From Octopus vulgaris (taxonomy: Eukaryota), in NCBI GenBank assembly GCA_951406725.2, contig OX597820.1:11594001-11658000 (forward strand): a DNA stretch of 64,000 nucleotides. Reading direction: 5' to 3'. The position numbers and the translations under genes are program-made. The notes under the pieces are model-generated. The model made no database searches and was not told where the DNA came from. It saw nothing but the letters and a program-made list of their open reading frames with translations. Shown one piece after another: positions 3,724 to 47,435 of this stretch. Numbering within the stretch: position 1 is the stretch's first letter; every line of letters starts with the position of its first letter.

Positions 3724-3758
<35 letters not shown>

Positions 3759-3764
3759 ATTTAA

Positions 3765-4322
3765 TAAATAAAATACATGCATATATGTACGTACCTACAT
3801 CTACATGTATATATACATGCATATATAAATATATATACGTGAGTACAGGACACCACAAATAGACTCAACGAGAAACGAAAACGTAAAAACAAACATGGAA
3901 ACGAACCTTTTTTTAAAAAACGAAAAAACAGAGTACAAGACAAACAACACAAGGAAAATTCCCCTTCATCAGCTGTCCCTAGTACGACTCCATGCGTGTT
4001 TCGAAGGTGAGGACAGAACACGACTCGTCGAACTAACCCTTCCTGCGAAAGAATTAAATAAAATTTCTTTGCAGAGGGGTAAAAACAAGGAAAGAAAAAA
4101 ATGTGACAAAAACAGGACGTAAAAACAATACAAATAAAATTACAGAATAAAATACAAAATAAAAATACAATTACAAAAAAATACAGTACAAGAAATTTTC
4201 CTTGTGTTGTTTGTCTTGTACTCTGTTTTTTCGTTTTTAAAAAAAAGGTCCGTTTCCATGTTTATTTTTACGTTTTCGTTTCTCGTTGAGTTCTACGTCT
4301 ATTTGTGGTGTCCTGTACTCAC

Positions 4323-4381
<59 letters not shown>

Positions 4382-4455
4382 TGTATATATACATGTAGAT
4401 CTAGGTACGTACATATATGTATGTATGTATGCATATATTTTATTTATTAAATTAT
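3765..4455 (-). mobile_element. Penelope-like non-autonomous element (family X) with inverted partial copy
   Basis: 3765-3960 and 4192-4450 are inverted copies; a non-inverted copy of the same element lies at 46945-47435; carries a hammerhead-like motif. Confidence 0.7.
3961..4079 (-). ncRNA. Candidate rearranged (non-circularly permuted) hammerhead ribozyme, family X copy 1
   Basis: Minus: CCCCT-[hairpin]-GAAGG-TAGTTCGAC..CGTG-TT-CTGTCC..CCTTC-GAAA-CACG..GTCGTACTA-g-GGACAG-CTGATGA-AGGGG; core nucleotides canonical. Confidence 0.75.

Positions 4456-18411: not shown

Positions 18412-18415
<4 letters not shown>
18199..18415. repeat. Imperfect inverted repeat, arms about 95 bp, between (TA)n tracts
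   Basis: AATCAATACTGAAACGATATTATCTATA / TATAGATAATATCGTTTCAGTATTGATT. Confidence 0.85.
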
Positions 18416-18469
<54 letters not shown>

Positions 18470-18579
18470 TATATGGGTACAGGGCTTCACCAAAACTGAA
18501 CAACCTGAAATACGAAAACAAATGATTTAAATACGCAAATAACGAGAGTGAAGAAAAAAGGAGAAGTAATAAAAAGAAC

Positions 18580-18701
18580 GACCCTTCATGAGTTGTCGGC
18601 TGTCTATCACTCATCATTTCGAGCAATGAACGACGATATGAGTCTTCGAAGACAGTTGCTCCCATAAATATCAAAATAATATTTGGGGTTTATGGAGGAT
18701 C
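18580..18701 (-). ncRNA. Candidate rearranged hammerhead, family Y (core G5 mutated)
   Basis: Minus: GATCCT-CCATAAA..TTTATGG-GAGCAA-CTGTCT..TCA-TA-TCGTCG..TTGCTC-GAAA-TGA..AGACAG-c-CGACAA-CTCATGA-AGGGTC. Confidence 0.65.
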
Positions 18702-19289
18702 AAGACTAGGAACATACAGGGGACATACAGGGAAGCCGAATGAAAAAAAATAAACATGGAGGGTCGTTAAATCTGAACAAGAGGGAAAATAAAGAACGCT
18801 GAAATAAATATTTTCTTTGAAAGGAGAAAAGACAGAAGAGAGAGATAGGAGACGTCCAGTCCTTAGAAGTCCGTGCAGGAAAGAAAGATGGATGATGGTT
18901 ACGTGTGAGCAACGAGAGAGAGAAAAAGAGAAAGAGGAAGTAAGAGAGAAAGATAGAGACAGACAGACAGACAGAAAACGCTGAGAGGGAGAAAAAGGGA
19001 ATTAGAGAGGATAAGAGAGAAAACAGTACAGAGTAGAGTCGCATCAAAAAGATCAAAATAAACCTATTTGGAAATGGATACGTGGAGTTCAATTAAATAA
19101 CCTAACAGAAGACATTTTGTCCAAGTTGCCACTCAGTGGACTGAACCCAGAATCATGTGAATGGAAAGCAAGCTTCTTACCACCCCTTCTCTCTCTCCCC
19201 CCTCTCTCACACACACACGCACATACACACACATATGTATACACACACACACACATACACACACACATATATATGTATATTTATATAAA

Positions 19290-39658: not shown

Positions 39659-39691
<33 letters not shown>

Positions 39692-39698
<7 letters not shown>

Positions 39699-39948
39699 GT
39701 CTGGGGAGAGTCATTTCCTTTTTGTGCCTTATAATGTAACACACTCACCGGTAAAATTTCCACTTATTTCATATTTTTATTTTCCTAAAGTTTTCGTTGC
39801 ATCTTGCAACCCTTTTCAATAGTCTTGAAGGTTGCAAGATGCAACGAAAATTTTAGGAAAATAAAAATAAGAAATAAGTGGAAATTTTACCAGTGAGTGT
39901 GTTACATTATAAGGCACAAAAAGGAAATGACTCTCCCCAGACACAACA
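39692..39948. repeat. Near-perfect palindrome, arms about 120 bp, spacer about 18 bp (Penelope-like inversion)
   Basis: TGTTGTGTCTGGGGAGAGTCATTTCC...GCAACC / GGTTGC...GGAAATGACTCTCCCCAGACACAACA. Confidence 0.9.
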
Positions 39949-40008
39949 GAATGTACTTCAACACATGAACTCATATAAAGTACGTTGCAAACCAAATCCC
40001 AAAACGAA

Positions 40009-42964: not shown

Positions 42965-43145
42965 TTGAAAATATCTTAAGAATGAGAACCTAGGTTCGAA
43001 ATTTCGCAAAGACACCTGATGAAGGCTGGAAGGTATATCAGCCGAAATGTTGTGTTAACAACAAACAAGATGTGGACAAATATCCGTCAAACGTAAATAA
43101 TGTAAATAATGTACATAATTCCTCATCTCTTAAATATAGAACTGT
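42615..43145 (+). mobile_element. tRNA-headed element with inverted 5' duplication and a hammerhead in the body
   Basis: Minus head 42672-42740 (TGGCGTAGTGG, GAGTTCGATTCC); plus head with deletion 42747-42795; (AAT)n(GAT)n(AAC)n; hammerhead at 43011-43056. Confidence 0.65.
43011..43056 (+). ncRNA. Minimal type-I hammerhead motif
   Basis: GACAC-CTGATGA-a-GGCTG gaaggtatat CAGCC-GAAA-TG-TT-GTGTT. Confidence 0.7.
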
Positions 43146-45987: not shown

Positions 45988-46131
45988 CATTCGGGGTTTT
46001 CTTTCCTCAGTCGAGTTCCAGATTATCTTCGCAATTTTGGCTGGTTATACTCGAGATTGCTCCACTCTGGCCAGCCCCAAGGAAAAAACTAAGCTAAGAG
46101 CATTAGACTCCTTGGAAAAAAGCAGCGAATG
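45988..46131 (-). ncRNA. Candidate rearranged hammerhead, family Z (G12 mutated at a CpG)
   Basis: Minus: CATTCG..TTTTTT-CCAAGGA..TCCTTGG-GGCTGG-CCAGA..GCAA-TC-TCGAGT..CCAGCC-AAAA-TTGC..TCTGG-a-ACTCGA-CTGAGGA-AAGAAA..CGAATG. Confidence 0.7.
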
Positions 46132-46920: not shown

Positions 46921-46944
46921 ATATGTATATATGTATATATATAT

Positions 46945-47435
46945 GATAAATAAAATATATGCATACATACATACATATATGTACGTACCTACATCTACAT
47001 GTATATATACATGCATATATAAATATATATACGTGAGTACAGGACGCCACAAATAGACGTAGAACTCAACGAGAAACGAAAACGTAAAAACAAACAGGGA
47101 AACGAACTTTTTTTAACAACGAAAAAAAAACAGAGTACAAAACAAACTACACAAGGAAAATTCCCCTTCATCAGCTGTCCCTAGTTCAACTCCATGCGTG
47201 TTTCGAAGGTGAGGACAGAACACGACTCGTCGAACTAATCCTTCCTGCGAAAGAATTAAATAAAATTCCTTTGCAGAGGGGTAAAAACAAGGAAAGAAAA
47301 AAAATGTGACAAAAACAGGACGTAAAAACAATACAAATAAAAAAAACAAATACAAAATAAAAATACAAATACAAAAAAATACAGTACAAGAAGGAATAAA
47401 AACAGGACAGGAAAACAATGAGGGCCTTTAAGCAT
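46945..47435 (-). mobile_element. Penelope-like non-autonomous element family X, second copy
   Basis: High identity to 3765-4190. Confidence 0.7.
47163..47281 (-). ncRNA. Candidate rearranged hammerhead, family X copy 2
   Basis: As 3961-4079; helix TAGTTCGAC/GTTGAACTA fully paired with one GU. Confidence 0.75.

Follow-up and report, generated by a model that had tools for sequence, protein, structure and literature searches.

A candidate hammerhead in an octopus repeat

Can a hammerhead ribozyme have its catalytic core split along the chain, and does an octopus repeat carry such a ribozyme? The question is raised by positions 18,580 to 18,701 of a 64,000-nucleotide stretch of the Octopus vulgaris genome (contig OX597820.1, positions 11,594,001 to 11,658,000; hereafter the window), in which the initial annotation had read six helices (P1 to P6), an AUA cleavage site, and the core word CTCATGA in a rearranged hammerhead order. 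All of these words are indeed present in the order described, and all lie on the minus strand, running from 18701 to 18580, a strand that the annotation had left unnamed. In our view this segment is probably what remains of a predicted self-cleaving hammerhead whose wiring is new; the copy has decayed and is likely inactive, and the non-coding repeat that carries it is likely a non-autonomous Penelope-like element. The parts of this copy, which belongs to a repeat family that we call Y, are as follows.

18466-19100, minus strand: full-length Y copy; by BLAST, positions 14-666 of the Y majority sequence align to window 19100-18466 with 82% identity to the majority
18696-18701, minus strand: 5' strand of P5, whose partner is the strand after the core; one wobble pair in this copy
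18662-18695, minus strand: P6 hairpin of at least 7 bp, with no unpaired bases toward P5 or P2; two fixed double changes between Y and its sister family Y2
18656-18661, minus strand: 5' strand of P2 (stem II), supplying G10.1 from upstream; first pair G-C in five families
18650-18655, minus strand: 5' strand of P4, the helix of the stem I–II interaction; one fixed Y/Y2 double change
18631-18642, minus strand: block S, with the P3 5' strand (18642-18638) and the P1 5' strand (18636-18631)
18637, minus strand: H17, an A; cut predicted by analogy between 18637 and 18636
18613-18626, minus strand: block G, with the P2 3' strand (18626-18621), GAAA (18620-18617), and the P3 3' strand to 18613; P3, the helix between blocks G and S, has two fixed Y/Y2 double changes
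18600-18605, minus strand: 3' strand of P4
18586-18598, minus strand: P1 3' strand (18598-18593) and core C3 to A9 (18592-18586), with G5 changed to C at 18590
18580-18585, minus strand: 3' strand of P5, immediately after A9, in the place usually occupied by a stem II strand
18415-18465, no strand assigned: (TA)n run at the fixed 3' end of the Y copy; most Y copies end alike

Five of the six P1 pairs form, as the initial annotation had counted; P5 contains one G·U pair, and the 3' end is as described there, followed by TA repeats. The annotation had also regarded this as a decayed copy, which is borne out by its lesions relative to the Y majority: G5→C, a mismatch in P1, a broken outer pair in P3 (leaving P3 with 4 bp), the wobble in P5, and a 1-nt deletion. 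The hammerhead core nucleotides are not intact in this copy owing to the change at 18590. Because M1 mutants in which this same G5 was changed are reported to have lost cleavage (Eckert et al. 2023, PMC10085705, accessible text), the window copy is predicted to be dead.

Two further details of this region were observed. The P5 5' word is repeated in Y at majority 354-366, ~70 nt upstream of the first (window ~18787-18797, coordinates approximate), and is a possible alternative partner. Between P4 and P3, the internal loop of the Y majority places GAA opposite AGUA (window 18606-18612 and 18643-18649, minus strand), presumably resembling a loop-E (bulged-G) motif; one A of this loop is missing from the window copy, and family X has tandem GA in the same position.

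The family majority restores the core and the helices

To place this copy within its family, we searched the genome (2.8 Gb, 227 contigs) with window 18470-18800, resulting in 3794 candidates, 40 of which were scored and showed ~80% identity to the window copy. An exact 23-mer from the 3' end of Y had 282 genome matches, compared with 0 for the reversed control. A majority sequence of 666 nt was built from 36 copy segments, and 25 of 30 Y loci were aligned with 15 of 20 loci of the sister family Y2 (alignment A1), leaving out larger indels and uncertain ends.

The expectation that a family consensus would restore CTGATGA and a fully paired P1 held. Position 5 is G in 23 of the 25 aligned Y copies and C in the window copy only, and the complete CTGATGA is found in 15 of 25 Y copies and 12 of 15 Y2 copies on A1. 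In the majority, P1 is fully paired (6/6 Watson-Crick), as is P5 (6/6). The hammerhead core nucleotides CUGANGA, GAAA, and UH are all present in the Y majority, and stems I, II, and III surround the core together with the G10.1-C11.1 pair, with G10.1 contributed by the upstream strand. When the Y majority is folded by minimum energy, its core pairs with the P3 strand, which gives a competing inactive fold.

The fold is kept across families with different letters

Since single genomic copies decay neutrally, evidence for the fold must come from families. On A1, 91.9% of 1440 cells are paired, compared with 37-47% when the partners are slid. Y and Y2 are distinguished by fixed double changes in P6 (two), P3 (two), and P4 (one), with none on A1 in P1, P2, or P5; because copies decay neutrally, the double-change counts on A1 represent about five events and not 80. 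The comparison was then extended to five family majorities, those of Y and Y2 together with X (25 loci), a further family, Z (20 loci), and the Naiad tail (7 of 10 loci). All five form P1 to P6 with different letters and with a gap-free P5/P6/P2 junction. The first pair of P2 is G-C in all five, and P2 in its split form has 5-6 Watson-Crick pairs in every family. Variation in P5 is confined to families not alignable to Y, and in the Naiad tail this helix is weak, with 3 pairs, a mismatch, and then wobbles.

The layout was also used as a search query. A six-helix descriptor gave 49 matches in 1,307,436 bases (the window and the fetched loci, both strands, duplicates included), all of them in Y, Y2, X, or the Naiad tail, compared with 0 in reversed sequence, and a looser descriptor gave 86 compared with 0 reversed in 1,813,358 bases; these counts measure specificity, not frequency, because the loci were fetched as repeat carriers. 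The descriptor searches turned up both Y2 and Z. An old repeat in an AT-rich, repeat-rich genome can be expected to offer short helices, and the pairings might in principle have arisen by chance. The empty reversed controls, the double changes between families, and the five-family comparison contradict this, and we find such an explanation scarcely credible.

Y had been proposed as a sister of X, sharing the same rearranged architecture. Both proposals agree with the comparison: the ribozyme parts are 60% identical (z 5.4 versus shuffles), and the X and Y majorities both form P1 to P6 in that layout. A chain of families links the two over the ribozyme part, with 80% identity from Y to Y2, 80% from Y2 to a further family, W, and 71% from W to X. 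In W copies, P1 and P2 are changed on both sides, as seen in the alignment rows. Z cannot be aligned to Y.

Several of these families were observed elsewhere. W, which stands between X and Y2 in sequence, was found at L289 (minus strand, 2024-2155), L160, L079, and L208. X has copies in the window at 3742-4447 and 46935-47392, the first preceded upstream by a 5'-truncated copy in inverted orientation, as is typical of Penelope-like elements; the predicted cleavage site of X is GUU. Z has a window copy at 45995-46128 (minus strand, core at 46010), with the split-core layout in unrelated letters; its site is AUC and its core CUGAGGA, the window copy carries G12→A, and a genome search gave 3778 candidates. 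A GIY-YIG remnant abutting a Z copy (L305) was taken as nesting and not as a partner.

The wiring compared with type SGC

Eckert et al. 2023 (PMC10085705) divide the hammerhead into blocks S, G, and C, which are assumed to be uninterruptible, and validated the order SGC (HRIMA-1 and variants), in which stems I and II are separated by a linker of ~3 nt and connected on their other sides by a helix. Their SGC RNAs come from metatranscriptomes and, per the accessible text, none from genomes of known organisms. In common with type SGC (PMC10085705), Y and its relatives run in the order S, G, C, connect stem I to stem II by a short linker (1-5 nt here and 4 nt in Y, versus typically 3 nt), and have a helix, here P4, that joins the other sides of these two stems. 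They differ from it in that block C is split, with the 5' strand of stem II upstream of the core, and in having two extra helices, P5 and P6, with a junction at A9; unlike the metatranscriptome RNAs, the families described here are high-copy animal genomic repeats. The chain in Y passes from A9 into P5, and from the upstream P5 partner through the P6 hairpin into the stem II strand, with no unpaired base at the junction. Judged by sequence, the split-core layout appears to be a new variant of the hammerhead.

In the proposed fold, the tandem G·A pairs would stack on P2, whose first G-C pair resembles G10.1-C11.1, and P5 would stack on P6, forming a second stack. The core would be that of an ordinary hammerhead, with cleavage predicted by analogy to occur after AUA. 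There is no GAAA 3' of the core within the Y unit, so that no ordinary hammerhead exists within one unit.

A plain type-SGC ribozyme could instead be the active form, in which the segment that follows CUGANGA and one additional A pairs with that preceding GAAA; a switch or an incidental role would then be left to P5, P6, and the upstream strand of P2. A viroid hammerhead may tolerate an extra base between A9 and G10.1. Y, Y2, and X could form a plain stem II of 4 bp, two of them G·U; this stem is 93.8% paired on A1 and would let a cut copy that has lost its 5' part retain some of its fold. This pairing, and with it an uninterrupted block C, nonetheless comes down to 2 bp for the Naiad tail and 0-1 bp for Z, whereas the split P2 keeps its Watson-Crick pairs everywhere, and P6, for which a plain type-SGC ribozyme has no need, carries two fixed double changes. 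We regard a plain type-SGC ribozyme as quite improbable, and continue with the split-core hammerhead.

Rfam hammerhead models gave no match up to E 10 for either the window copy or the well-paired copy L127, which is expected because the order is pseudoknotted. Across the whole window, only microsatellite-driven microRNA matches were present among the 150 of 317 Rfam matches listed. In the literature covered, with most subscription journals lying outside the search, we found no split-core or non-circular hammerhead in an animal retroelement, and the term "type-SGC" was found in Eckert et al. 2023 (PMC10085705) only.

The repeat is likely a non-autonomous Penelope-like element

The Y majority is non-coding, with a longest ATG frame of 94 codons. 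Y copies have a common 3' end before (TA)n and a variable 5' truncation. At six loci (L006, L007, L008, L017, L054, and L071), the first 50-60 nt are repeated after the 3' end as a tail; an inverted truncated copy lies upstream of Y at L005, L007, L008, L035, and L071, and a tandem Y unit is present at L021, L027, and L101. Tails, tandem copies, and inverted truncated copies are described as typical Penelope-like arrangements (Craig et al. 2021, PMC8557442). The fixed 3' end at (TA)n, 5' truncation, tail, and tandem and inverted copies of Y are also marks of other Penelope-like clades. Y is likely a non-autonomous Penelope-like element, and at most non-autonomous, as no ORF with an N-terminal GIY-YIG and a C-terminal reverse transcriptase (RT) domain was found in it.

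No coding partner was found attached to Y in the loci examined. As candidates, a GIY-YIG frame in L005 was rejected because it lies on the other strand, and an RT frame in L286 because it ends in its own 3' region. The latter locus (L286:894-3542, plus strand) has a frame of ~880 codons with an RT match, belonging to a Penelope-like element with a C-terminal endonuclease, and adjoins a Naiad tail; the 3' end of the element has the core-like words CUGUUGA and GAAA. A word resembling a 5' splice site occurs near the start of Y (majority 40-55; window ~19050-19065, minus strand) and also in X and Y2 tails. An intron in the leader is common among Penelope-like elements.

Naiads bear more directly on the split layout. 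They are reported to have no canonical hammerhead, and eight cases, including Naiad_Ovul, are noted as "HHR_half_core", the other half lying at a distance of 35-50 nt, in the accessible parts of Craig et al. 2021 (PMC8557442). By eye, the Acropora and Octopus Naiad consensus 3' ends in the supplement of that paper have the six-helix layout. Several other Naiad motif matches, for example those from nematodes, show the ordinary core order (matches 1-52 of 62 in PMC8557442 inspected), so not all Naiads carry the split layout. A 24-mer of the published Octopus Naiad consensus end has 127 exact matches in the genome. RT remnants lie upstream of the Naiad tail in the same orientation at L314 and L316, and of 50 Naiad-tail copies selected by motif, none extended as far as the ORF. 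Y and the Naiad tail are 58% identical (z 2.5), mostly in the core words and without being alignable, with one Naiad family compared. Like Naiads as described in the accessible parts of PMC8557442, Y shows a (TA)n context, 5' truncation, tails, and tandem and inverted copies; unlike them, it lacks an ORF, and its sequence is not clearly homologous to this genome's Naiad tail.

Animal non-LTR retrozymes are a second point of comparison. These carry type I hammerheads in units of 150-450 bp (Cervera and de la Peña 2020, PMC7229834; Li et al. 2026, 10.64898/2026.07.22.740005), and the accessible text of the latter preprint uses type I models only. Y resembles them (PMC7229834; 10.64898/2026.07.22.740005) in being non-coding, ribozyme-bearing, partly tandem, and a proposed non-autonomous Penelope-like element. 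It differs from the retrozymes of PMC7229834 in being mostly dispersed and truncated, with a hammerhead of non-circular split-core form; at 666 nt for Y and ~770-820 bp for Y2, neither family has one type I hammerhead per 150-450 bp unit.

As a retrozyme-type processing signal, the ribozyme could also require two tandem units or a circle, in a CSG-like order in which one unit contributes the core and the 3' strand of P5 and the next unit everything else, so that single units would stay uncut. This would suit the tandem dimers of Y2, with their period of ~770-820 bp, and the Y 1.x-mers, would account for the many copies that read through the site, and has a parallel in the animal retrozyme hammerheads that can need dimers (PMC7229834). 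All six helices nevertheless close inside a ~120-nt span of a single unit, and they are also present in Naiad tails that have no tandem partner, Naiad_Ovul being annotated as "no pLTR" (PMC8557442, accessible part), which makes a tandem-only ribozyme very unlikely in our estimation. Closer to the split-core hammerhead within a single unit are the type I hammerheads in the pLTRs of Penelope and Poseidon elements (Frangieh et al. 2024, PMC11167929, accessible text), with which Y shares a hammerhead in the terminal repeat of the element, fixed ends, and an optional tail. Their order is the ordinary circular one, whereas that of Y is split and non-circular.

Copy 5' ends pile up past the predicted cut

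If the ribozyme acts on templates, the 5' ends of Y copies may carry a trace of it. The predicted cut falls after position 489 of the Y majority. From the first 100 listed of the 282 matches to the 23-mer, 91 copies were taken in genome order, of which 89 aligned to the anchor; three copies sampled earlier (with starts at 5, 84, and 289) and the last six of the 100 were left out. Starts per 30-nt bin among the 89 copies numbered 2 at 430-459, 4 at 460-489, and 23 at 490-519, followed by 7, 6, and 7 in the next three bins. That is, 23 of 89 copies start no more than 30 nt downstream of the predicted cut, compared with 6 in the 60 nt upstream and 13 in 520-579 (binomial p 7e-7 versus both flanks and 2e-4 versus the 3' flank; scan p≈0.0005). 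Fourteen of these 23 start at 493-500, with ends uncertain by a few bases; the peak lies ~4-15 nt past the predicted cut and not exactly at it. Forty-two of the 89 copies begin upstream of the cut.

Other samples were also inspected. Of 30 copies selected earlier by their 3' part only, 12 start in 490-510 and 0 in 457-489; 7 of the 30 repeat earlier loci. When copies were selected by their last 84 nt instead, 5 of 30 main copies began at 501-510, one of these after an internal gap. The upstream partial units of two tandem copies start at 491 (L021) and 495 (L101). For the Naiad tail, starts are only weakly enriched around the cut, with 7 of 50 copies beginning within ~31 nt of the anchor. The pile-up of Y 5' ends suggests that cleaved templates were copied.

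We propose, with less assurance than for the fold, that the cut would set the 5' end for part of the RNA templates, and that a Penelope-type enzyme supplied in trans would start at the fixed 3' end and run off near the cut. Short copies and 1.x-mers could then derive from templates beginning at the cut, and longer copies from uncut, tandem, or re-joined circular RNA. After cleavage the 5' piece would still be held by P5, P2, P4, and P3, which, speculatively, could favour re-joining; re-joining into circles is known for retrozymes (PMC7229834). Priming by pairing of the target with internal (UA)n was considered and set aside as speculation, one tested element being reported to start at a site non-homologous to its target (PMC11167929).

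In RNA-seq from a related organism (three runs of one study, ~6% read), there was no listed pile-up of ends at the predicted cut, and Y was covered about equally on both strands; family X had 0, 1, and 0 reads in these runs, which contain Y. The Poseidon hammerhead likewise shows no read ends at its site, and its cleavage is unnecessary for insertion of the element in vitro, according to the accessible text of Frangieh et al. 2024 (PMC11167929). Set against this dispensability, copy ends of Y do pile up past the predicted cut.

The fold might be real and yet non-catalytic, or no longer catalytic, acting as a structured signal for the RT, with 5' ends produced by stalling or template switching in the knot. 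Such a role fits the lack of RNA-seq ends at the cut, the spread of starts over 493-519, and the read-through of the site in many copies, and we found no tested precedent for an intact four-way junction at A9. Stalling sits poorly with the position of the starts: the 14 at 493-500 lie 5' of the 3' strands of P5, P1, P4, and P3 and have reached or passed the end of P2, a point by which the knot would already be undone, and start density drops sharply at the predicted cut. CUGANGA, GAAA, UH, and G10.1-C11.1 are moreover kept in five families despite the turnover of their helices, which argues against a non-catalytic fold. We judge this explanation unlikely, and favour the self-cleaving hammerhead.

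Implications and other observations

A more far-reaching proposal, which we put forward tentatively as a possibility, is that a chain threaded through the core by a four-way junction constitutes a seventh natural hammerhead wiring, standard in many Naiads and their passengers from corals to octopuses, and that it cuts, holds its ends with four helices for re-joining into circles, and sets the 5' ends of many insertions. If true, this would overturn the working assumption of unbreakable blocks, under which six wirings are possible, and would place non-circular hammerheads in animal genomes in thousands of copies. It would likewise explain the "half-core" motifs of Naiads, which are reported to be without canonical hammerheads, and would reveal, for the first time, a genomic trace of the action of a Penelope-like ribozyme. 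The role of such ribozymes becomes directly testable through the edge in copy 5' ends at the predicted cut, and a hammerhead with a built-in exit helix at A9 could be useful for RNA engineering.

Apart from these families, window 43016-43045 (plus strand) resembles a type I hammerhead core with an extra A before stem II, and is unlisted by the type I descriptor. An unrelated high-copy repeat with 9762 candidates, mostly short inverted pairs and MITE-like (for example C10:51068519-51068963), was also encountered, and inverted arms similar to this repeat lie at window ~39690-39952.
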